From Candidatus Omnitrophota bacterium (lineage in GTDB: Bacteria; Omnitrophota; Gorgyraeia; Gygaellales; Profunditerraquicolaceae), in contig JBAZKL010000002.1 of the NCBI GenBank assembly GCA_041650835.1, forward strand, positions 338,472 to 402,471: a DNA stretch of 64,000 nucleotides, written 5' to 3'. Positions 6,398 through 17,304 of the stretch are shown here, piece after piece; within the stretch, counting starts at the first letter, position 1, and each line of letters begins with the position of its first letter. Under the pieces are notes generated by a model. The model did no database searches. It saw nothing but the letters and a program-made list of their open reading frames with translations, and was not told the DNA's origin. The position numbers and the translations under genes are program-made.

Positions 6398-6730
6398 ATG
6401 AGAGACCTATTATACCGGAACTTAACTTCACCAAATAAAAACCGAAGGATAATTACCAGTTCCGAAATAGCAGACAAAGAAGGTATCAGGACCGTAATAC
6501 AAAGACATTTCATTTATATTGTTAAAAGAATAAACGGTAAAATACCGCCTAAGCCAAAGCCGTATCTTTACGTTCTAAAAGAAAAGAGCCAAAAGAAACA
6601 GATGGAAAAATTCTTTTGCAGGATCAAAGGCGGGTTTTATATTATTAACAACGGCACTCCGGCACTCGTTCTTTTTACGCATTCACTTAAAATAAACCTG
6701 AGCGCCATAAATAAAACAACTCTTTGTTAA
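6398..6730 (+). CDS. hypothetical small basic protein (uncertain)
   Basis: Internal ATG 6398 of track ORF 6326..6730, with a GAGG Shine-Dalgarno 6 nt upstream. K/R-rich, no recognised motif. The track TTG start at 6326 lies inside a 10-bp stem-loop. Confidence 0.25.
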   Translation: MRDLLYRNLTSPNKNRRIITSSEIADKEGIRTVIQRHFIYIVKRINGKIPPKPKPYLYVLKEKSQKKQMEKFFCRIKGGFYIINNGTPALVLFTHSLKINLSAINKTTLC

Positions 6731-6880
6731 TAGGATAATTGCCACAGCCTATTACAAAAAAAAGGAAGACGCAGCTTGACAAAACAATAAAGTAATTGTA
6801 AACTTTATTAAATGATTTAAAATCTTTTGGGTCCGGTGTTCTCGATTATGGAGGTAATCGGGAAATGCCACGAAAATTCA

Positions 6881-6922
6881 AGCCGGATTGACGAAAAGGG
6901 TCAATCCGGCTTTTTGTTTTTT
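6881..6922 (+). terminator. rho-independent terminator
   Basis: agccggattgac-gaaaag-ggtcaatccggct stem-loop followed by tttttgtttttt. Confidence 0.55.
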
Positions 6923-6958
6923 ATACCTAACCGAGTTCTACATAAGGAATTAAAGTTG

Positions 6959-6988
6959 TTGACAAATAAGGAGAAATGGTACTATAAT
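6959..6988 (+). promoter_or_regulatory. sigma-70-type promoter (TTGACA-N18-TATAAT) for the secreted-fibre operon
   Basis: Consensus hexamers at 6959-6964 and 6983-6988, ~18 nt upstream of ATG 7006. Confidence 0.45.
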
Positions 6989-7005: not shown

Positions 7006-8418
7006 ATGAATAATACATCGAAAAGAATATCCTTAAAATACCTGGTCATGCTGTGCGGCGCAATAGTCTTTTGTGCTTCTGCGGCTGCATTGGCCGCGGA
7101 TATCTTTGACCTCTCCTACAGCCTTACCGAAGGCGGTTTTCGTTTAGAATTCAACCAAGTCACCCCCTCAAGAGGCATTAAAGTCGATATTACCTCTAAT
7201 ATAGCCACCCGCTATGAAATTGAATTAGCAATTGTGCGGCCCTTAGAGAACCGGGATAAACCTAACACGCTCGTCAGAGATAACTTTTTCGTCAGAGGGA
7301 TCCGGGGAAGCAATCAATTCGGCGATTTTCGCCTGCCGCCAAGCGATTCAACCGTCAGGACATCTCAAACTATATATGTTTCCAACACAACGGGGAGCCC
7401 CGACAGCATTACCATGGTGCTTGGGGTAACCAATATTACAACCCTGCCCTCCGGGTATTACACGGGACAAATCAGTTTAACCCTCAGGCCTATCGGATCA
7501 GCCAGGTCGCACGTGGTCAAGTACATTGATATTTCCGCGACTATTCCTCAATCTCAAATAAAAGCTGAAGATAAAAGCGTCAAATTCTCTACGCTTTCAG
7601 GGAACAAGAGGATCACGCTGAATCCCAAGAAAAACGAAACCCAATCAGGCGATATTTTAGTTACCATAAACGGTACTTTCTCGCAGCAATTTAAACTGGT
7701 TCAAACTATACCGCAGCCCCTGGAATCCAAAGAAGGCAACAGGCTGAGCAATGACACAGTAAAATTCTCGGTAAAAGAAACAAGTATCGGATCAGCCGAA
7801 AGCTTAGAGAAAACCTTATCAACTGGAAGGCAAGTTCTATACACATCGCTTCCCGACGGAAAAGCTGACAAGACCTTTGTCATTACGTATTCCCTTAATG
7901 ATATTGCTAAACAGACCGCGGGGGATTATGCTACTAAGATCCAATTCTCCCTGGAAGAAATGGGCAATCTGACGAACCTTGACACTTTTACACTGGAGAT
8001 CAATAACGCACGGACATTCGACTTAACCATAGCGCCCCAGGACCAAATGGGTTCCCTGGATTTCCGTAACCTTAAACCCAATCAACCGCCAAAGCAAAGA
8101 GAAGTTACGGTAGAAATTAAATCAAACATAGGCAAGCGCTATCAAGTGAATCAAAAGCTCTTCGCGCCTCTTACGAACAGGGAAGGGCAAATAGTCCCTG
8201 GCGCGAATTTCACCCTAAAGACTGAAAGCATTTCAACAAAAGGGAGCTTACGCTACCCGCAATCTCAAGCGATAAAAGAAGGCGAGATGACCCTGCTTGT
8301 TTCAGACGCTGCAGGATCTCCCGACTCATTTAAAATAATCTACGAATTAAGTTTTCCTAAAGAGCTTAAAGCCGGCGACTATTCTACCAGGATCACTTAT
8401 TCCTTATCTGAGATCTAA
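7006..8418 (+). CDS. secreted protein with three tandem SCPU-like (spore-coat-U/archaic pilin-like) domains; candidate tip or adhesin subunit
   Basis: Signal peptide MNNTSKRISLKYLVMLCGAIVFCASAAALA. Three ~140-aa repeats each ending in the pilin-like strand SGYYTGQISLTL / AGDYATKIQFSL / AGDYSTRITYSL, with recurring GSPDS motifs. Confidence 0.5.
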   Translation: MNNTSKRISLKYLVMLCGAIVFCASAAALAADIFDLSYSLTEGGFRLEFNQVTPSRGIKVDITSNIATRYEIELAIVRPLENRDKPNTLVRDNFFVRGIRGSNQFGDFRLPPSDSTVRTSQTIYVSNTTGSPDSITMVLGVTNITTLPSGYYTGQISLTLRPIGSARSHVVKYIDISATIPQSQIKAEDKSVKFSTLSGNKRITLNPKKNETQSGDILVTINGTFSQQFKLVQTIPQPLESKEGNRLSNDTVKFSVKETSIGSAESLEKTLSTGRQVLYTSLPDGKADKTFVITYSLNDIAKQTAGDYATKIQFSLEEMGNLTNLDTFTLEINNARTFDLTIAPQDQMGSLDFRNLKPNQPPKQREVTVEIKSNIGKRYQVNQKLFAPLTNREGQIVPGANFTLKTESISTKGSLRYPQSQAIKEGEMTLLVSDAAGSPDSFKIIYELSFPKELKAGDYSTRITYSLSEI

Positions 8419-8489: not shown

Positions 8490-9188
8490 ATGAAAAAAAC
8501 AGTAGGGATCATGCTCGTAGTTCTCTGCGCGCTTGGAATTGCTACTTTGGCGTTTGCCGACATTGCCTTAAGTGTCAATGCCGTAGCTGATTCAGGCACT
8601 ACACTGGGAACGCACGCAATGCTCAGATGCACGGGTTATAATTACAATTCCGCCGGAGACCCGTGGACACAATGCACCAATCTTGGCGCTACAACAACGA
8701 TGAGTTTCGGGACCTTGACGCATTCGCTTAAGAATACCGCCGGTCAAACGACAGGAGACGCGGGTTGTTTCTATGGTGATTATTTCTTCATCATATACCT
8801 GTTCCCTGACTGCTGGGGCGGCAAAGGATACGACCTTAAGCAAACCACATCAAGCTTCTCAACCGAGATCAGGAACGCGGTTGTGAGGACTCCCGTATAT
8901 TCCAAAGACGACAAATATTCCGGAGCTGCTGCTCAAGGCGATTTGACCACTGCGGAAAAAGCCTTGAATCCTCAATTAGGAGTCGGCTATCTCGCACGGG
9001 ACTCTGCTGAAGGCAATAACCGGATATTAAAAGCCAAGAGGGCAAGGATCGTTCGCGCGGAATACGGCATTCCTCCGTTCCCGGGCACAGGTCAAACCAG
9101 GCCTACTGGCTGGGCTGCCATAGAAAAAACCACCTTGGCAGGCACCTATTCTGGCAGTGTTACAATTACATTGACAGAATGGCAATAA
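8490..9188 (+). CDS. SCPU-domain (spore coat protein U-like) secreted pilin-like subunit
   Basis: Signal peptide (…ATLAFA/DI), GGGGG-type RBS 9 nt upstream, C-terminal AGTYSGSVTITLTEWQ. The latter matches the G-x-Y-x-D/G-T-V-T-V-T C-terminal strand of archaic chaperone-usher pilins. Confidence 0.55.
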   Translation: MKKTVGIMLVVLCALGIATLAFADIALSVNAVADSGTTLGTHAMLRCTGYNYNSAGDPWTQCTNLGATTTMSFGTLTHSLKNTAGQTTGDAGCFYGDYFFIIYLFPDCWGGKGYDLKQTTSSFSTEIRNAVVRTPVYSKDDKYSGAAAQGDLTTAEKALNPQLGVGYLARDSAEGNNRILKAKRARIVRAEYGIPPFPGTGQTRPTGWAAIEKTTLAGTYSGSVTITLTEWQ

Positions 9189-9318
9189 TATTCTATAATA
9201 TTGCCTAATGGAACGACATGATCAAAAGGTAATAAAGTAATCTAACTTCAGGATACTAAAGGATTTATTCCTTTAGTATCCTGAGGTTTTTTAATTTCTG
9301 ACTAAAGGAGTGTCACGA

Positions 9319-10215
9319 GTGTTAAAGCGGATATTACTGCAATGTTTGGTGCCTGTCGTTACTTGTTGTTTCATAACAACAGCTTATGCTCAAGGGATAT
9401 CTTACAGCCTTGATAAATCTAAAGTCCGGGCGCTCCTGCCACCGGGAGGCTCACAATCAGGGGCCATTAAAGTATACAGCCAGACAAACGACACTTTAAA
9501 ATTTAAAGTTTATTTCGAGGACTGGATTTATGAAAAGATACAAGATGGCGCGAAAGAATTCATGCCGGCCAATACTTCAGCATTCACCTGCGCCACCTGG
9601 ATACAATTTAATCCGGCAGAATTCACCTTGACCCCTTACGGCATTCAAACAGTTAATTATGTTATTGCCGTTCCGGCTGACGCAAAAGGAAGCCACGTAG
9701 GAGTTATGTTCTTTGAAACCAATACGGCAGATAGCGCCGGCATTGAAATAGGCAAATCACAAGAAACCTTACAATCAGGCGTCGGCCTCGATATCCGGAT
9801 CGGCTCCTTATTCTATGTTGATGTTAAAGGAGCGATAAATCGAAGCGCTGAACTAAAGAAATTCTCCGTCACTAAAGATTCCAAAAACAAGAATTTTATC
9901 ATCTCCGCCGATCTGAAGAATACCGGAGATGCCGATATTACGACCGAAAGCACCTATCACATTACGGATAAGCAAGGCATGATTTACGCCCGGGGCAAGT
10001 TTAATCCTGTGTATACTCTGCCGGGAGACGAAGCGGAAATATCTTCTACCTGGAAAGATTCTATCCCCCAAGGGACATATAATATTGTTTTAACCGTCAA
10101 CCTGGGGAAAGCGATTGAGGAAGCAGGACTGGGCCGCGGCCCTATCATGCTCAAAGAAACAGAGATCGAAATCAACTCAAACGGAGAAGTTACAAAGATT
10201 GGAACACTCAGATAG
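9319..10215 (+). CDS. periplasmic PapD-like (Ig-fold) pilus chaperone-like protein
   Basis: GTG start with an AAGGAG RBS, then a signal peptide. The N-terminal stretch YSLDKSKVRALLP…IKVYSQTNDTLKFKVY parallels the PapD N-terminus (SLDRTRAVF…, conserved Arg). Two beta-sandwich-like halves. Confidence 0.45.
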   Translation: MLKRILLQCLVPVVTCCFITTAYAQGISYSLDKSKVRALLPPGGSQSGAIKVYSQTNDTLKFKVYFEDWIYEKIQDGAKEFMPANTSAFTCATWIQFNPAEFTLTPYGIQTVNYVIAVPADAKGSHVGVMFFETNTADSAGIEIGKSQETLQSGVGLDIRIGSLFYVDVKGAINRSAELKKFSVTKDSKNKNFIISADLKNTGDADITTESTYHITDKQGMIYARGKFNPVYTLPGDEAEISSTWKDSIPQGTYNIVLTVNLGKAIEEAGLGRGPIMLKETEIEINSNGEVTKIGTLR

Positions 10216-10234
10216 ACGGCTACCATACACATCA

Positions 10235-13039
10235 ATGCGTAGATTCTTTGTTTTTATCCTCATATCTGTTTTTTTACTCGCGAATTTCTTTCCCGCGTAC
10301 GCATATACCTATTTACCTGATTACCTCTGCCAACTGGGGCTGCAATTTTACCTTGAAGGAAGATACGATGACGCCCTCTATCAATTTAAGAACGCTCTCT
10401 TAGCGCAACCGGATAATCAACTCGCTTTAAAATACATCTCAATCATCCAGGAAGAACAAACCGGACAGCCGCAAGCTCAAGCGCAAATTCCCAGCTCCAC
10501 ATACCAGGGGCAATCAGAAGTTTTAAAGCTGCGCGAAACTCCCGGATTAATTACAAGAACTCCTTCTTCCGGCGTAAACGCCGAGTATAACGGTCTGCCT
10601 CAAGCACCCCAAAAGGGGTACACACCTGAATTTGACGCTTCAAAAGTAAGTACGGAAAAAACCTACGCACCCGGCCTTGTCGTTTTGGATGAGACATTCA
10701 AAGACATCCCTAAACCTATCGAGTTGGAACAAAACCGAAGCATCATTATCAGGGGCAGCAACATTCAAAGATTCTTAGCCACACAGCCCGATATAATCAC
10801 CGTTACCAGAAGCAATGCCGATGAAATAGTAGTAACCGGAAAAGAAGTCGGATATTCATATGTGCATGTTTGGGATAATACTGACCGTTGGACAGTTGAC
10901 TTATTAGGCATATTTCCCAAGCCTGAAGCGCCTACCTTTGAAGAATTACGCAGGCAAGAGGAAGAATTGAACCAAAGCTTTAAATGGTATTATTCCATTG
11001 ATTGGGCATCTTTTGAAACAGGCAGAAGGTTACGAAAAGATGCTTTAAACAGGACATCCTATGCCTGGACCCACAGCCTGGGAGTGACCGGCCAAACACC
11101 GTATGGCTTCTTCGACTCTTCAATGACCGCGCGGTCTAACTCTCTGAATACCGACCTCACCTACTATACCATCGGGTTAACCAACGGCCAATACGGGATC
11201 TTAAAGAATTTTTCTCTGCGCGCCTTTGATTATTCCCTGCCATTCGCGAACCTGGCTTTTTCCGGAGCTCAATTGCGCGGTGTCACCTTTAACACCCCTC
11301 TTTTTAATAAAAAACTCGATTATACCCTGTTCTGGGGAAGAGAAGGAGGCGGACGTTACGGCAATTTATCGCCGAGTTTAAGTAAAACCAAGAACTCTTT
11401 TCTAGAAGGCGCCAATGTCAGCTTTACCCCGACAAAGCATCAAAACTATGCATTTACGGTAGTGCGCGGGCACGGTAGAGACAGGGAAGAAGACTTAAAC
11501 CCCTACGGATATGACCTGTATAACACCTGGAGCTTTGATAAATGGGGGGCACGCTACGAAATCGCCCATGATTCGGAAACTTTTGCCCATGTTCTGGAAA
11601 CTCATCAGAAATGGTCGTTGGCAAACACAAGTATTTCATTCAGGGACGTGGATACTAACTTCAAGAGCATTACCGGAAACGGCTGGGCGCAAGGCCAGAT
11701 CGGTTCCCTCATGAGCATAAATTATCAACCCGATGAATTATGGAATACTTACGCGAGCCTGGATATTTACAGAGAAAGGCTCTACCCTGCAGAAGAAAAA
11801 CCAAAGCGCCTGAACGAAGATCTTAATTTTAACACTACGTACCAAATGAATCCCGATACCAGTTTTAATTTCTCGTATTCCTTTCAAAACGACCTGGGCA
11901 AGTTAGCGCAAAGCCGCTACATTTCGACGAATTTAGGGGTCACGCAAAAAATGTACTTCCTGAAAGATATGTACGGATTCGCTAATTATTACCATCAGAT
12001 CAGCCAGAATTTTTCTTCACCGGCTTCCGACTACGTAAATGACAGGTTCTTCGCGGGTATCCGTTTTAATTTAATCGACGAGCTTTACTTTTACGCAAAT
12101 AAAGAAATAAATTTATTGAAAGAAGATTTCTCGGGCGTACACTATCATCCTCACTCGACTGAAACCGGCGTTGATTACTCAAGTAAGATCGGCAGCTCTC
12201 CTTTTTACGGGAACATGCGATTTTATTACCGTGATGAAGAAGCGGCCGACGCTTCGTTAGGTTTTCTTTCAGGCGAGGATTCGATCGAAGGCCACCTTGA
12301 ACTTACCTACCGGGCCAATGATAACAATGAAATATACGCCGCAACGACAGTACGCAATGTGTGGGCGGATAAAGAAACAGTAGAGAAACGTATTGAAGCG
12401 AATTTTAACGTCGGTATGCGCTGCATGTGGGATACAAACTACCGCTGGGAAACAGTAGGCAATATTGAAGGATACGTATTCAAGGATGAAAACTCCGACG
12501 GCTTAAAACAGAAGAATGAAGCTCCCGTAAGTGAAGCAAAAATATGGCTCGGGAACCAAGACTATACGACGACCGACGTTTTCGGTTATTTCAACTTCAG
12601 GAAGATCAAGGCGCGTAAAGCGTACGTGAGCTTTGATACTTCAAGCTTGCCGCCGGGTTTTGTCTTGACCGTCCCGGTAAACCAGGAAGCAGTTCTTTCA
12701 CAACATCGGATAACTCGAATAGATTTCGGGATCATTTCACGCGCGGAAGTATCGGGGATGGTCTTTGAGGACACCGATAATGACGGGAAATACACGCTTT
12801 CTAAAGATAAAGGAATAACAGGCGCGGTCATTACCCTGGAGAACGGTAAACAATTAACCACCGATAACACAGGTAAATTCTACTTCCCCAATGTCAGCAC
12901 GGGAAAACACACTATCAGCCTCGACCTCAACAGCCTGCCTATCTACTACCTTCCGAAATCAGCGATCACCCATGACTTCGAACTTTTTGAAGGTTCCACC
13001 TATATCTATAATATCCCCATTAAAAGGATCCAGGAGTAG
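10235..13039 (+). CDS. outer-membrane protein: TPR + secretin-N/'pilus formation N-terminal'-like domain + large Tyr/Asn-rich beta-barrel + 2x Cna-B/SdrD-B-like Ig domains; candidate usher analogue
   Basis: Signal peptide MRRFFVFILISVFLLANFFPAYA. TPR (LQFYLEGRYDDALYQFKNALLAQPDN). SIIIRGSNIQRFLATQPDIITVTRSNADEIVVTGKEVGYSYVHVWD resembles the CpaC/RcpA N-domain. Two C-terminal repeats GxVFxDxxNDGKx…TDxxGxFxF. No secretin P.L..IP..G.LF signature. Confidence 0.5.
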   Translation: MRRFFVFILISVFLLANFFPAYAYTYLPDYLCQLGLQFYLEGRYDDALYQFKNALLAQPDNQLALKYISIIQEEQTGQPQAQAQIPSSTYQGQSEVLKLRETPGLITRTPSSGVNAEYNGLPQAPQKGYTPEFDASKVSTEKTYAPGLVVLDETFKDIPKPIELEQNRSIIIRGSNIQRFLATQPDIITVTRSNADEIVVTGKEVGYSYVHVWDNTDRWTVDLLGIFPKPEAPTFEELRRQEEELNQSFKWYYSIDWASFETGRRLRKDALNRTSYAWTHSLGVTGQTPYGFFDSSMTARSNSLNTDLTYYTIGLTNGQYGILKNFSLRAFDYSLPFANLAFSGAQLRGVTFNTPLFNKKLDYTLFWGREGGGRYGNLSPSLSKTKNSFLEGANVSFTPTKHQNYAFTVVRGHGRDREEDLNPYGYDLYNTWSFDKWGARYEIAHDSETFAHVLETHQKWSLANTSISFRDVDTNFKSITGNGWAQGQIGSLMSINYQPDELWNTYASLDIYRERLYPAEEKPKRLNEDLNFNTTYQMNPDTSFNFSYSFQNDLGKLAQSRYISTNLGVTQKMYFLKDMYGFANYYHQISQNFSSPASDYVNDRFFAGIRFNLIDELYFYANKEINLLKEDFSGVHYHPHSTETGVDYSSKIGSSPFYGNMRFYYRDEEAADASLGFLSGEDSIEGHLELTYRANDNNEIYAATTVRNVWADKETVEKRIEANFNVGMRCMWDTNYRWETVGNIEGYVFKDENSDGLKQKNEAPVSEAKIWLGNQDYTTTDVFGYFNFRKIKARKAYVSFDTSSLPPGFVLTVPVNQEAVLSQHRITRIDFGIISRAEVSGMVFEDTDNDGKYTLSKDKGITGAVITLENGKQLTTDNTGKFYFPNVSTGKHTISLDLNSLPIYYLPKSAITHDFELFEGSTYIYNIPIKRIQE

Positions 13040-13052
13040 TCCCCTGAACGCT

Positions 13053-13415
13053 TTATCGGCTGTAAAATGTCTTTACCACAACAATGACTCCGGATATCTC
13101 ATTTGACTGCGTGTCAGCTTTCTTTTCTTGTTGGATCAATTCTGAAGCCTGCTCCTGAACAGGCGCGCTTTCTTTTTGTATCGAAGGTACTTCGGTTGAC
13201 TGCTGTTGCACGCTTTGATTATTCGGCGAAACAACGCCAAAAGAGCCTTGTTGAGGACCTTCCTGGGCTTTTTGAGCATCACTGGCGATCAAAGGCGCGT
13301 TTACTCCGGGAATAGCCGGAATAGTACATGACATGGAAAAAGACGCGTTCTCTGCGTACACAGTCCCCATCAGCATTAAGGATATCAGCCCTGCGATCAT
13401 TAAATTTCTTTTCAT
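13053..13415 (-). CDS. small secreted Gln/Ser-rich protein
   Basis: Signal peptide MKRNLMIAGLISLMLMGTVYA, low-complexity Q-rich middle, C-terminal hydrophobic strand VIVVVKTFY. Confidence 0.4.
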   Translation of the reverse strand: MKRNLMIAGLISLMLMGTVYAENASFSMSCTIPAIPGVNAPLIASDAQKAQEGPQQGSFGVVSPNNQSVQQQSTEVPSIQKESAPVQEQASELIQQEKKADTQSNEISGVIVVVKTFYSR

Positions 13416-13477: not shown

Positions 13478-13738
13478 TCACCGTGGCTGGTGGGATCTAA
13501 TATGGCCCAAAACCTCCAGGATCCTGCTTTCGAAATCTTCTTCTGACCTTAAATTCTGTCCGTCTATATCCAGCTTTTTGGTAAAATCTATCAGCCATGC
13601 GATCAATTTTGCGCGGGATAGCTTTAATCCGGAAGAGAAAAGGGCGTCTTTACCCAGTTTGTCCAGGAAATCAACTTCACCCCGGTTTAGAAACGTAACG
13701 ACCCTTTGATTTTTTTCCTGATACAGGTTGTTTTTCAT
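13478..13738 (-). CDS. hypothetical small cytoplasmic protein (possible DNA-binding)
   Basis: ATG with a GGGGG RBS at the internal Met (MKNNLYQEK…) of track ORF 13478..13777. The upstream part of the track ORF overlaps a terminator. Confidence 0.35.
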   Translation of the reverse strand: MKNNLYQEKNQRVVTFLNRGEVDFLDKLGKDALFSSGLKLSRAKLIAWLIDFTKKLDIDGQNLRSEEDFESRILEVLGHIRSHQPR

Positions 13739-13791
13739 GCTGCCCCCAAATAAAAAACCCCGGCTTGTTTTAGGCAAACGAGGCCAGGGTA

Positions 13792-13824: not shown

Positions 13825-14052
13825 TTCCTTCTGGCAACGCAGCCCCCCGATTAATTAATCGGGGCTGTCGCTTTGCGCCCCAGCATTACTGCTGGTTTGC
13901 CTTTTACAGTACTCGAAATTGTCAAACCGAACTCGGGCCGATCGCCCTTATCCCTATCTCCAATTAAAATATAACATATATTTACACATATTTCAAGTTT
14001 ACCGCGCTATTATTTTATCAATATCACAATGTGTCATTTTACCCTAAACACT

Positions 14053-17000
14053 TTATTCCAGGTATACATCAAGAGCGGTTATCTGACGGTTACGCACTCC
14101 TTGAGCGTACGCAGCAGGGAGCGTGTCGGAATTGAGAATGACCGGATGAGCCGATTCATCTTTAAAGCTGATCCTTTTAACCGACACACCGCTTTTCCCA
14201 AAAGTATCTTTCTTTTTCTGATTATGATAGGTTACCACGACAGAACTTAAGAAATGGAACATATAAAAACCTTTTTTATCAAATAGCCAGCCGGGCAGCA
14301 CCGGCTTTACTCTTAATTGCAGTTGTCCGTCCTCACCGAGAAAGAAGGGGGTATGCCCTATATTCATGATCAACCACATATTAATGAATTCAACGGTCGA
14401 ACCCGAAAGGCGTGCGACAAATCCATTGCCGTGCAATTTTTTTTCCGGAAAAGCGCTGCTGACAATAAAGGAAGAATTCTCTAAAATGCTTCTTCCGTAA
14501 CACTGAGGGTCTTGGAAAGGGATAAGCACATTCTTAAATTCCTCAAAATATTCTTTATACAAACCGCGCTTTAAAAGCTCAAGGATATATTTATACTCCA
14601 TATGCAGCCATATCGATTCATTTTCCAGCCACCCGGGAGTGAAAATACGGCACCTGCCGATCTCTTCAGGCATATCCATGAGCGACGCGGTAACTTTATA
14701 CATCTTAAGCTTTTTGTCATAGAGCGGGCTCTTTCTTGTCGCCTGATACAACGATTGAGCGCTCAGGCGATCTTCACTGAGCCGCAGCGCGTGCATATGC
14801 CCTTCAAGAAAAAGAGGAAGGGGCTTTTGTCGGAATTTGGTCGCTCGAACATAGGGTTTCTCTAAAGGCTCATACGCGGTGACCTCATTAATAAAATAGG
14901 ACAAATAGGTGCCGGACTTTTTGTCAAACGCTTTGGCAATCCCCAGATCAAGCTTCGTTTGAGCCTTTTTAAGAATAGTGAGTGCTTCCTGAGAGCTCAT
15001 TTCCAGCTCTTTACCGCTCAAACCGGATTTTGTTTTCTCCCGGTACGCCTCTTTCAGCGAATTACTGGCATCCCAATAAGTAAAGTCGCCTTCACTGCCG
15101 CCGGCTATCGACTGATCGATCAATCCTCCAAGTTTAACAAAAAAATCAAGGATATCCTCATCGACCCTGACCGATTGCACACCGGCAGCGGTCATGGCCT
15201 TCATCATAAAAAGCAGCAATCGTTTTAATTCAAATGTCTCGCACAGCGAAGAGCCGAAAAGAGCAGGCAGGCCGTTTAACGCGTCAAACCAGTTAGGTTT
15301 ATTTGCCTCCATAGCAACGCCCACGCCGAAAGGATCCAGGCTCGACATCTTATTAACCATAAGGCAGAACAGCTTATTGATCAATGTCGTTTTATAGACA
15401 TCACCCGTCCCGTATGCAGCGCGGACCACATGCGCCTCAGTTGCCCTCCGCATGATCATATCCTTCTTCTCAAGGTCAAGTGAGACCGAATGAAATTGAC
15501 GCACGCTATCTTTATGCAAAACATATTTCTTATTGCGCGGGTTAACAACTTCGGCATTATCAAAAAAGCTGAATTGCCTGCTTTCAAATACGATCTCCTT
15601 CAACTTCTCGGGGTACACTCCGAGATAACTTTCCAGCAGGTCCAGATTATAGGTCCAATGATCGGTCCAGAAGCCTTCTACGTGTTCAGCTTCCTGGTTT
15701 TTACTGGAGTGGGCCAAAAGGATATTCAAGAACTGGTCATTTGAAACGTTTAACTTGACGCCTTGAGCTTCCAGAAAAAAGACCAATTCTCCCGGGCTAA
15801 AAGGTTGGGTTAAAAAAGAAAGCAAAAGTTCCGTGTCCCGGGCTGACATCAGGCTCAGTAACACATCTTTCAAGACGAGAGGGTCTTTCATCACAAATCT
15901 ATCACCCTTAACCACTAAAGGATTATAACCGTCTGTCTGCAATAAATTAAAGAAAGTAACGATATTTTCTTCCCTAATATTAGGATTAAACCAGACATCG
16001 CAACGCCTGTTCTGGTTCACATCGCGGTAATTACCGTTACCTTGCGAAAAATAGGTCGGCTGGATCGAGAAACGGTTGTAATCCCGCTCTAAGTCTCCAT
16101 GCTTACGGGAATAAAGATAGAAAACCGCGGCGCGATATTCCGGCTTCATAGGCTTACGGGCGAACTGAGGAGAAACAAAAATAGTAGGGTAGCCGCCCCG
16201 CATAATATTATCAAGGTAGGTCTGGCGCACATAAAGATCAAATTCCTTCCGGGCGCTTTTAGTGTTGATATTCACCTCTAATTCTTCTATCGTGCTCTTA
16301 TTCTCTATTTTTTTCTTTTCGAGATATCCTGACGCCGTAATCCTGCCGACAGAAGCATTCAATATACCCAGGTTACGCATATTCCCGGCTACGCAGTGAA
16401 AAGTCTTACCAGCCCCCGCAGGCAATCTGAAAGATAAGGGAATAAAAGCCGAAGGTGTTTTACTGCGCAAGCTCATGACGGCCGCCGGACGGAATTTCCT
16501 ATTATCAACAAAAGCCCGCGGATAAGAAAAATCATTCTCAGTGCCGAAAACAGATTCCGGGTCGACTAAAGGAGTAATGACCTGAGGGGAACCTTTTTCA
16601 TAGTGAAAACCTAAATAAAAATTGCCTTGCTCGATATGGACCACTTCTGGCCTATCGGCAGGATCAACGCTTAATTTATAAAAAGGTACGCCTCGTTTTA
16701 AGTTTTCGACAACCATCCAGGCTTCGATTGTCCGGCTCATTTTCTTTAAAAAGAAATTATTGACGCCGAAAGGGACGACTTGAGGCAGGCCGTCGACAAG
16801 TTCGATCTCTTTGGCTGACCTTGAAAGGTTCGCAACAGTCACATTCCTCACAAGCCCCGCGTAAGAATCTTGAGGGACCGTAAAATAATCCACCGAGATA
16901 CTTAATCCCAAAGTCCTATTGATCTCCTCCAATCTCAAGCCATATGAGGTAATGAACATCTTATTGGACACAAGGTATCGTTCATTAACGAATCCTGGCC

Positions 17001-17304
17001 GGAATGGTTCGTACATCCTGAAGCTATTTTTAGTCATAACTTTCAGAAATGTCCGGAACCCGTGAGTGAATACTGTTTCCCACGCTTTATTTGCAGGCTG
17101 GAATTCAAGTATTGAGTTATCTTTATCTTTAATACCGAAGCTGCAGATCGCCTGGCCGCGATTGACATAAAAGGCCCACATCGGAATGCCATACTTACCC
17201 GCGATGCCGGGGAAGAAATTAGCAAACGGCTTGGCAAGATTATAGTTTTCTATGACAAATTCATGGTCAGCGTTGAGATAATATTTTGGTTTGGCTGCAC
17301 TCAT
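14053..17304 (-). CDS. large (1083 aa) glycoside hydrolase/glycan phosphorylase-like protein, (alpha/alpha)6-barrel type, family unresolved
   Basis: Uninterrupted 3.25-kb ORF with a GGAG RBS. The N-terminal beta-sandwich-like region (YYLNADHEFVIENY…NRGQAICSFG) resembles GH94/GH65-type phosphorylase N-termini. The C-terminal W/H/Y-rich helices (WLENESIWLHMEYKYILELL) resemble the same families. Family call is tentative. Confidence 0.5.
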   Translation of the reverse strand: MSAAKPKYYLNADHEFVIENYNLAKPFANFFPGIAGKYGIPMWAFYVNRGQAICSFGIKDKDNSILEFQPANKAWETVFTHGFRTFLKVMTKNSFRMYEPFRPGFVNERYLVSNKMFITSYGLRLEEINRTLGLSISVDYFTVPQDSYAGLVRNVTVANLSRSAKEIELVDGLPQVVPFGVNNFFLKKMSRTIEAWMVVENLKRGVPFYKLSVDPADRPEVVHIEQGNFYLGFHYEKGSPQVITPLVDPESVFGTENDFSYPRAFVDNRKFRPAAVMSLRSKTPSAFIPLSFRLPAGAGKTFHCVAGNMRNLGILNASVGRITASGYLEKKKIENKSTIEELEVNINTKSARKEFDLYVRQTYLDNIMRGGYPTIFVSPQFARKPMKPEYRAAVFYLYSRKHGDLERDYNRFSIQPTYFSQGNGNYRDVNQNRRCDVWFNPNIREENIVTFFNLLQTDGYNPLVVKGDRFVMKDPLVLKDVLLSLMSARDTELLLSFLTQPFSPGELVFFLEAQGVKLNVSNDQFLNILLAHSSKNQEAEHVEGFWTDHWTYNLDLLESYLGVYPEKLKEIVFESRQFSFFDNAEVVNPRNKKYVLHKDSVRQFHSVSLDLEKKDMIMRRATEAHVVRAAYGTGDVYKTTLINKLFCLMVNKMSSLDPFGVGVAMEANKPNWFDALNGLPALFGSSLCETFELKRLLLFMMKAMTAAGVQSVRVDEDILDFFVKLGGLIDQSIAGGSEGDFTYWDASNSLKEAYREKTKSGLSGKELEMSSQEALTILKKAQTKLDLGIAKAFDKKSGTYLSYFINEVTAYEPLEKPYVRATKFRQKPLPLFLEGHMHALRLSEDRLSAQSLYQATRKSPLYDKKLKMYKVTASLMDMPEEIGRCRIFTPGWLENESIWLHMEYKYILELLKRGLYKEYFEEFKNVLIPFQDPQCYGRSILENSSFIVSSAFPEKKLHGNGFVARLSGSTVEFINMWLIMNIGHTPFFLGEDGQLQLRVKPVLPGWLFDKKGFYMFHFLSSVVVTYHNQKKKDTFGKSGVSVKRISFKDESAHPVILNSDTLPAAYAQGVRNRQITALDVYLE

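Follow-up and report, generated by a model that had tools for sequence, protein, structure and literature searches.

Pili assembled by the chaperone-usher (CU) route are regarded as largely proteobacterial and as recognizable by their Pfam domains. In the CFA/I fimbriae of enterotoxigenic Escherichia coli (ETEC), which belong to class 5 of these pili, CfaA is the chaperone, CfaB the major pilin, CfaC the usher and CfaE a two-domain tip adhesin. Here we describe a gene cluster of an uncultured Omnitrophota bacterium (contig JBAZKL010000002.1, positions 338,472 to 402,471 of the forward strand; this whole stretch of 64,000 nucleotides is called the window below, and coordinates refer to it unless a related locus is named) in which a single secreted protein of 470 residues, hereafter tri470, carries three pilin-like domains. 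The closest known system to this cluster is CFA/I, by structure only. On balance we think it probable that tri470 is a conserved structural subunit of a divergent, CU-like donor-strand pilus or fibril system, apparently specific to Omnitrophota. The best reading of the protein itself is that of a natural head-to-tail fusion of three pilin-type immunoglobulin-like (Ig) domains, serving as a tip or acceptor subunit.

Two properties of the classical systems matter for the comparison. A pair of basic residues in the CU chaperone holds the C-terminus of the subunit, and the tip subunit of a CU pilus has no N-terminal extension while its last pilin domain needs a donated strand (PMC7531860). The latter combination is one that tri470 appears to share. 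A second point of reference is provided by the Pam pili of bacteria of the candidate phyla radiation (CPR), which assemble by donor-strand exchange from pilins that are invisible to sequence searches, each with a nine-strand sandwich and a truncated Ig domain joined by a linker (bioRxiv 10.64898/2026.03.03.709456). Besides proteins resembling CU chaperones, the Pam operon codes for a tip acceptor of one domain and for a terminator or anchor whose N-terminal strand is inserted; Pam has been reported as exclusive to CPR, an ultra-small lineage, with membrane-anchored chaperones and no outer-membrane component (bioRxiv 10.64898/2026.03.03.709456). Pam is a precedent for sequence-orphan donor-strand pili in uncultured lineages, but it differs from the present system, which belongs to a diderm phylum and combines a chaperone candidate of soluble type with a large outer-membrane candidate and a triple pilin fusion. 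The main genomic survey of Omnitrophota limits its account of attachment devices to type IV pili, Tad pili and giant open reading frames, and the word 'usher' is absent from it (PMC10066038). The literature that we searched describes no CU-like system for this phylum.

Three Homologous Domains in One Secreted Chain

The gene in question is the following.

7006..8418, plus strand: tri470, a 470-aa secreted protein with three pilin-like domains (open reading frame and translation)

Residues 1-30 of tri470 constitute a Sec-type signal peptide that ends in ...AAALA and is followed by ADIF, with cleavage at about the junction of ALA and ADI. The remainder divides into three repeats, R1 (aa 31-166), R2 (aa 167-320) and R3 (aa 321-470). 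An earlier note on this DNA had described three repeats in a secreted protein, and this description is borne out by the signal peptide and by two kinds of self-comparison. Local Smith-Waterman alignment gave z values of 6.7 for R1/R2, 19.8 for R1/R3 and 13.0 for R2/R3 (500 shuffles, none of which matched the observed score), while HHalign between the repeat sub-alignments, drawn from 68 homologues, returned probabilities of 99.2, 99.8 and 98.6 % with E-values of 1e-19, 1e-27 and 8e-16. Since BLASTP of tri470 against itself yielded the diagonal alone, shuffle-calibrated Smith-Waterman and HHalign were needed to show the repeats. The triplication is real and ancient.

All three repeats contain the motif xGxYxxxIxxxL, in the form of SGYYTGQISLTL at aa 149-160, AGDYATKIQFSL at aa 305-316 and AGDYSTRITYSL at aa 456-467, and the pentapeptide GSPDS occurs twice, at aa 130-134 and aa 437-441, both in agreement with what had been noted before. 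The motif had also been called donor-strand-like, which needs to be qualified: It does recur in every repeat, but it forms the last core strand of each, namely the F strand on the acceptor side. The donor-like strands of tri470 are the segments that come after the motif, at aa 170-180 in R1 and aa 321-334 in R2, and R3 is without one.

An AlphaFold2 model of tri470, built with the 68-sequence alignment, reached a predicted local distance difference test (pLDDT) value of 91.7 and is all-beta after the signal peptide, with three beta-sandwiches laid out as follows.

7096..7545, plus strand: domain 1 (D1), aa 31-180, nine strands, of which eight form the core and the ninth is at aa 170-180
7561..8007, plus strand: domain 2 (D2), aa 186-334, nine strands, of which eight form the core and the ninth is at aa 321-334
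8008..8415, plus strand: domain 3 (D3), aa 335-470, eight strands, the chain ending directly after the F strand

In domain 1 the loop PIGSARS joins the F strand (150-162) to the ninth strand (170-180), and the boundary of the domain was placed after this extra strand because of a dip in pLDDT at aa 181-190. In domain 2 a turn of only two residues connects the F strand (306-318) to strand 321-334, so that the two strands must form an antiparallel hairpin. The incomplete Ig fold that had been envisaged for each repeat is found in part: Domain 3 is one strand short and, on the basis of secondary structure and alignment, shows the Ig-like pilin fold without its last (G) strand, whereas domains 1 and 2 carry a ninth strand. 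Judging from the strand counts and from its homology with D1 and D2, domain 3 would have an open groove.

The register of the repeats conveys the same arrangement. R2 and R3 each start with a link strand (YIDISATI aligns with TFTLEINN), while R1 starts at the first core strand; mature tri470 has no N-terminal extension and begins directly with that strand of domain 1. The architecture is therefore core, strand plus core, strand plus core, and the same layout would result if three donor-strand-linked pilins were fused and the first of them lost its N-terminal extension. Instead of the N-terminal donor extension of CU subunits, the internal link strands of tri470 would serve in cis. Mean-field direct coupling analysis, which was noisy (210 sequences, effective number 200), placed the eight strongest partners of link 2 (aa 322-335) all inside domain 2, including V192 and Q313. 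The top pairs of link 1, I174-I58 and A178-L80, fall in D1, where they occupy the sites homologous to those of the D2 pairs, although the signal of this link is mixed and extends to partners in D2 too.

Comparison of the model with the PDB by Foldseek gave 3f85 as best match (E 9.7e-16, 505 columns), an entry entitled 'fusion complex of homo trimeric major pilin subunits CfaB', which is an engineered construct of CFA/I fimbriae. After it, the listed matches include 3f84 (CfaB-CfaB), 3f83 (CfaE-CfaB), 5y9h (SafDAA-dsc) and 5cyl (CupB6 tip adhesin). The engineered fusions 3f85, 3f84 and 3f83 are organized as tri470 is, with a core, a turn, the donated strand and the next core. The best match outside pilins, an integrin leg, has an E-value of 5e-11, about five orders of magnitude behind 3f85. 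At the level of fold, then, the earlier suggestion of a pre-polymerized or tip protein is supported, with three pilin-type Ig domains on one chain and an engineered pilin trimer as nearest structure. From these matches the domains are best described as CU-type pilin domains linked as in a pilus, with class 5 pilins as nearest in fold, and the label of spore coat protein U (SCPU) domain given to them in the earlier note is unsupported.

That label implied an unusual three-domain SCPU subunit of the archaic (sigma) CU pathway, which we now consider very improbable. The C-terminal motif xGxYxGxhxhxL of tri470 speaks for it, being similar to the strand at the C-terminus of pilins of the SCPU and other CU families. 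Yet the SCPU family PF05229 matches neither tri470 (E <= 1) nor its 68 homologues (E <= 0.1) nor 10 proteins of the type encoded next to it (p232-like, see below), Csu (SCPU) pilins are missing from the listed fold matches, and a Pfam search of the cluster proteins revealed no gene for a PapD chaperone (PF00345) or an usher (PF00577), so that any chaperone and usher here differ from the archaic ones in not being detectable by Pfam. Broader searches were likewise negative: tri470 has no Pfam or NCBIfam family match, its 68 homologues match no SCPU or fimbrial family, and PDB sequence and profile searches with tri470 came back empty.

Type V pili of Bacteroidota (FimA/Mfa1) provide no better fit, for they are defined by a lipoprotein precursor and protease-triggered donation of a C-terminal strand without a chaperone, whereas the signal peptide of tri470 ends in ALA before ADI, its mature chain has no Cys and a chaperone-like gene is present in the cluster. 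FimA and Mfa structures are not among the listed fold matches of tri470.

Distribution and Conservation of tri470

A word-indexed search retrieved 79 near-full-length relatives of tri470, whose source names, where given, are all Omnitrophota or Omnitrophica. The exhaustive search of representatives found 478 clusters at 50 % identity (E <= 0.001), of which the best 150 contain only proteins of about 460 aa or their fragments; hence no protein of a single domain appeared among them that would connect tri470 with a known family.

The C-terminus of the protein, ...AGDYSTRITYSLSEI-COOH, is flush and conserved in all homologues. Among the domains, mean pairwise identity is highest in D3 (38 %), followed by D1 (35 %) and D2 (26.5 %); the lowest entropy lies in domain 3, at aa 371-390 and 431-470, and the first 20 residues of domain 1 rank among the best-conserved segments. 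The greater conservation of D3 and D1 than of D2 fits functional interfaces at both ends of the chain, and that domain 3 should be the best conserved is expected of an interaction hub.

Genomic records yielded 19 distinct related loci after removal of a duplicate, with tri470 proteins 35-86 % identical to the query. Three of the records with the cluster (L006, L010 and L019) are titled 'uncultured Planctomycetales bacterium' and come from binchicken metagenome-assembled genomes; these titles probably reflect an issue of taxonomic labelling and not a wider distribution. The order that recurs in Omnitrophota loci, with protein identities of 35-50 %, is up134, tri470, a p232-like gene, p301, om974 and then the convergent m120, with or without m99. 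Three of these genes would provide the partners of tri470.

8490..9188, plus strand: p232, a variable secreted protein (family of about 195-250 aa) with a signal peptide, proposed as pilin
9310..10215, plus strand: p301, a periplasmic protein with a two-domain PapD-like fold, proposed as chaperone
10235..13039, plus strand: om974, proposed as outer-membrane assembly pore, about 934 aa if translation begins at 10235, the likely start

A Variable Secreted Partner

A gene of the p232 family was identified in 13 related loci and stands beside tri470 in 12 of them. The proteins fall into two subtypes of different length, which are homologous to each other (hhalign 98.8 %), and p232 has neither a Pfam match nor a sequence match in the PDB. 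Its mature N-terminus is beta-like, with alternating character (ADIALSVNAVA; ILAIKAYIP, VQITASIP and VTVRAVIP in relatives), and its C-terminal motif is AGTYSGSVTITLTEWQ. All p232-like proteins end in aGtYsGtVTlTL(tp), a motif that they have in common with CfaB, which starts with VEKNITVTASVDP and ends with AGNYSGVVSLVMTLGS (sequence 100 % identical to a plasmid record), and with CfaE, which ends with AGQYMGNIKITFTP; the likeness of both to the p232 family is at motif level only, and the hhalign comparison was not significant. When p232-like proteins were compared with the repeats of tri470 by hhalign, only the C-terminal strand aligned, at low probability.

The N-terminus is of particular interest for strand donation. 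With a position-specific scoring matrix (PSSM) of link strand 1, the mature N-terminus was the best position in 7 of 14 p232-type proteins and the second best in 4 more; the PSSM of link 2 found no N-terminal pattern in these proteins. Moreover, the high variability of p232 fits an exposed shaft.

These observations bear on a different arrangement, in which tri470 itself would be the repeating stalk, the first strand or N-terminal edge of domain 1 filling the D3 groove of the next molecule, with p232 as a minor or adaptor subunit. In favor of this arrangement, tri470 is the first gene, with the strongest promoter, and the N-terminal 20 residues of its domain 1 are highly conserved. In the alignment, however, the mature N-terminus falls on the first core strand of D2 and D3 and not on the link strands, so that donating it would unfold domain 1, and the segment that does resemble a link strand sits at the N-terminus of p232-type proteins instead. 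We regard a stalk of tri470 as improbable.

Candidate Chaperone and Outer-Membrane Protein

The AlphaFold2 model of p301 (pLDDT 84) shows two beta-sandwich domains, with a loop of 22 residues of low confidence before the strand LDIRIGSLFYV. The protein has the two-domain PapD fold and aligns over 85-92 % of CU chaperones in the two-domain register. R or K is conserved in every aligned sequence at position 40, in the first strand, and at position 163, in the strand after the loop; p301 itself has R40 and R163, the latter within LDIRIGSLFYV. By analogy, these residues recall the basic pair of CU chaperones. Comparisons with sequence families were negative: Pfam and NCBIfam gave nothing relevant for p301, nor for p232. 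The families PapD_N and PapD_C (PF00345/PF02753) find no match in 17 homologues of p301 even at E <= 10, and its hhalign probability is 1.9 % with FimC and 5.7 % with CfaA.

The following gene product, om974, presents in order a signal peptide, tetratricopeptide repeats (TPR), a variable linker, the T2SS-T3SS_pil_N domain (PF13629), an orphan core of about 518 aa and two C-terminal sandwiches of SdrD_B/CarboxypepD_reg type. PF13629, the 'pilus formation protein N-terminal region', is found with an E-value of 1e-6, above the gathering score. At least 120 orthologues (the best 120 of 181 matches) have the same architecture, and several are annotated as 'pilus assembly protein N-terminal domain-containing protein'. 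The usher domain (PF00577) is found neither in om974 nor in these best 120 orthologues, so that by sequence the protein is not an usher; hhalign with FimD and CfaC gave less than 1 %. The 518-aa core has no match in Pfam or the PDB, and against the PDB the om974 profile matched in its TPR and SdrD domains only, besides a weak hit to 8jvb. A crude periodicity scan of the core counted about 23 amphipathic beta segments. This layout, with periplasmic N-terminal domains, a large putative barrel and two C-terminal sandwiches, might be seen as parallel to that of an usher. The T2SS-T3SS_pil_N domain is also N-terminal in the Tad/Flp secretin CpaC/RcpA, from which om974 differs in having no secretin domain; the cluster contains no genes for a Tad ATPase, a platform protein or a Flp pilin.

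With the partners in place, the differences from CFA/I can be listed together. The hhalign probabilities of the cluster proteins to CfaA, CfaB, CfaC and CfaE are 0.1-5.7 %, short of what would indicate homology, even though the C-terminal strand motif AGxYxGxVxLxxT is held in common with CfaB and CfaE. Whereas the CfaB trimer was engineered, the fusion in tri470 is natural and kept in hundreds of clusters. The CFA/I tip has an adhesin domain and one pilin domain, against three pilin-like domains in tri470, and om974, with its TPR, Tad-secretin-type N and SdrD_B domains, is not a recognizable usher. Gene order differs as well, and so does the host, a proteobacterium in one case and an uncultured member of Omnitrophota in the other.

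The same set of results has to be weighed against the possibility that there is no filament at all, with tri470 acting as a non-polymerizing surface or periplasmic protein of three Ig domains, for example as adhesin or spacer or as part of a surface layer. In that case om974 would export or hold tri470 in a fixed stoichiometry, and the missing strand of D3 would simply leave an edge at which p232 or om974 docks. Antigen I/II, PrgB, integrin legs and RTX adhesin repeats match the tri470 model with E-values of 1e-7 to 1e-11; the protein has no N-terminal extension and thus cannot polymerize with itself; om974 is not an usher by sequence; and domain 1 is well conserved instead of hypervariable. 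What counts against such a protein is that the best fold match is specifically a donor-strand-linked pilin trimer, that the conserved neighbors of tri470 include a PapD-like protein of two domains and another secreted protein whose termini are of pilin type, and that a C-terminus so flush and nearly invariant is typically seen in subunits bound by a chaperone cleft (for the principle, PMC7531860). We judge it unlikely, though a good deal less so than the stalk or the SCPU subunit.

A Proposed Mode of Assembly

Taking tri470 as a subunit of a donor-strand fiber raises a question of mechanism: How could a chain that has no strand of its own to donate be built into a filament? In domains 1 and 2, the strand normally donated by a neighboring subunit would come in cis from the segment that links each of them to the following domain, and domain 3, where the chain ends at the F strand, would keep its groove open. 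After export by Sec, p301 may cap this groove, with its strand LDIRIGSLFYV and residues R40 and R163 set against the invariant C-terminus of tri470, and the resulting complex would dock on om974. There the N-terminal strand of a p232-type pilin could displace the strand of p301 from domain 3. As tri470 lacks an N-terminal extension, it can accept a strand only and would therefore sit at the distal end, forming a rigid tip of three domains with p232-type subunits behind it. The triplication, the folds, the number of strands per domain, the conservation of the cluster and the riboswitch described below are findings of this analysis, whereas strand exchange, the roles of p232, p301, om974 and m120 and the filament itself are inferred from them.

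Several considerations weigh against this scheme. Pfam, NCBIfam and PDB profiles all fail to provide a sequence-level link to a CU component, and hhalign of the cluster profiles against FimC, FimD, CfaA-C and CfaE was not significant. The structure of p301 also matches non-chaperone proteins of PapD-like/ASH/MSP type and WxLIP proteins at similar Z, the PSSM scores of link strand 1 on p232 N-termini are weak in absolute terms, and the assignment of the link strands to the preceding domain, which comes from connectivity, the pLDDT dip and noisy covariation, is that of a model. The usher analogy of om974, in turn, draws on domain order and a crude strand count. In one locus (L004) the subunit genes are not followed by those for the chaperone and the outer-membrane protein, and the filament is a prediction from the genes.

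More tentatively, the whole set of observations may point to a donor-strand fiber pathway that is phylum-wide in Omnitrophota and invisible to sequence searches. Such a pathway would employ a non-usher pore combining TPR, a Tad-type N domain, a novel barrel and two Ig domains, a pre-polymerized tip of three pilins, and a small secreted capping or anchoring protein controlled by a riboswitch for cyclic di-GMP (c-di-GMP). This broader proposal seems to us less likely to be right than wrong.

Regulatory Elements and Neighboring Genes

The region upstream of tri470 and the junction between the subunit genes and the assembly genes contain the following features.

6398..6730, plus strand: up134, a basic, Cys-containing protein of about 110 aa, directly upstream of the cluster
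about 6805-6925, plus strand: RNA-like element of about 100 nt, conserved between up134 and tri470
6959..6988, plus strand: sigma-70-type promoter, TTGACA-18-TATAAT (12/12), 18 nt upstream of the tri470 start codon
9171-9199, plus strand: second sigma-70 consensus promoter (12/12), overlapping the end of p232 and directly before the hairpin
9244..9288, plus strand: terminator-like hairpin (20-bp stem, T-run) separating p232 from p301

The motif MRDLL[FY][KR]N.TS...RHF...FFC[RK][IM]KG...HSLKI characterizes up134, which is present in 17 of the 19 distinct loci, has no family match in Pfam or NCBIfam and is possibly a regulator. The RNA-like element has equivalents in L003 (7796-7930) and L012 (7737-7875) and also in L015, L019, L008, L014, L016 and L013. 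It comes with a separate sigma-70-like promoter, the loop of its 5' hairpin contains GGAGG, and at its end is a terminator hairpin that hardly varies, AAGCCGGATTGAC...GTCAATCCGGCTT, followed by a T-run. Four of its predicted pairs keep pairing through two-sided changes, two of them in the 5' hairpin (counting only pairs unbroken in any sequence), and the word GCCGGATTGAC occurs in 13 loci. Rfam, searched in E-value mode, holds no family for the element, which is a candidate small RNA or attenuator leader.

Equivalents of the tri470 promoter, with 11/12 matches, occupy the same place in L003 and L012. In these two loci neither the second promoter nor the hairpin has a counterpart at its place. 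The hairpin divides the subunit genes from the assembly genes; together with the promoter before it, it could set the stoichiometry of subunits to machinery or act as a leader.

On the other side of the cluster, genes of opposite orientation converge on om974.

13053..13415, minus strand: m120, a small secreted protein (family of about 90-120 aa), convergent with om974
13478..13777, minus strand: m99, a small conserved cytoplasmic protein (RVVTFLNRxEVDFLDKxGKDALFS...), between the riboswitch and m120
13829..13910, minus strand: c-di-GMP-I riboswitch (GGC variant) aptamer, RF03167, upstream of m99 and m120
14053-17304, minus strand: protein of 1083 aa without a signal peptide

The riboswitch scores 64.5 bits (gathering threshold 59; E 8.5e-14), and of 8 other loci, 7 have an above-threshold riboswitch in the corresponding position, which in three cases immediately precedes m120. 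The family is RF03167, with RF01051 in two loci. The positions in the related loci are as follows.

L019, 14706-14782, minus strand: riboswitch
L003, 14753-14834, minus strand: riboswitch
L010, 14231-14308, minus strand: riboswitch
L017, 14191-14274, minus strand: riboswitch
L015, 14504-14588, minus strand: riboswitch
L012, 14607-14688, minus strand: riboswitch
L009, 12093-12210, minus strand: riboswitch

Adhesion and pili are commonly under the control of c-di-GMP. The gene m120 is conserved in 13 of the 19 distinct loci. Its product has a conserved N-terminal motif, S-V/M-S-C-T/I-I-P-A-I/V-P-G-V/L-N (S-V-S-C-T-I-P-A-I-P-G-V-N-A-P), a low-complexity middle part rich in Q, E and K, and a conserved C-terminus, ...T-V/I-Y-S/N-R. 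The N-terminal strand is loosely like the pattern h-x-h-x-A-x-I-P of tri470 link 1 and the p232 N-termini, and under the riboswitch m120 might modulate, end or anchor the assembly. Because the N-terminus of m120 does not stand out in a scan with the link-strand PSSM, the idea of a terminator or anchor stays speculative. The protein belongs to no known family; its weak match to FilC (E 0.044) was dismissed as sub-threshold, as was a weak 'Pertactin' match in Pfam among the cluster proteins. The neighboring m99 has no Pfam family and is a possible regulator.

At least 5 further distinct loci (L001, L003, L012, L013 and L019) also have the gene for the 1083-aa protein beside the cluster, and the precomputed annotations of the homologues of this protein contain no Pfam family. 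The most divergent locus, L004 (7130-17190), has a different environment, in which a gene with a PilZ domain precedes the tri470 and p232-like genes; these are followed by genes for a secreted tandem-repeat protein of about 750 aa and a protein of 1613 aa with Peptidase_C39 and RHS/YD repeats.

Implications for Omnitrophota

The principle of donor-strand pili is already known; what is new here is the natural fusion of three pilins, the non-usher partner, the phylum and the linkage to a c-di-GMP riboswitch. If our interpretation of tri470 is true, donor-strand assembly extends to a new phylum, and the protein is a natural counterpart of the pilin chains complemented in cis that structural biologists have engineered. 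In evolutionary terms it would also ask whether an usher-like function arose independently on a different barrel. The c-di-GMP riboswitch beside the cluster constitutes a concrete regulatory handle. Given the host-dependent or predatory lifestyles that have been proposed for Omnitrophota nanobacteria, the fiber, if it exists as envisaged, could be an organelle of attachment.

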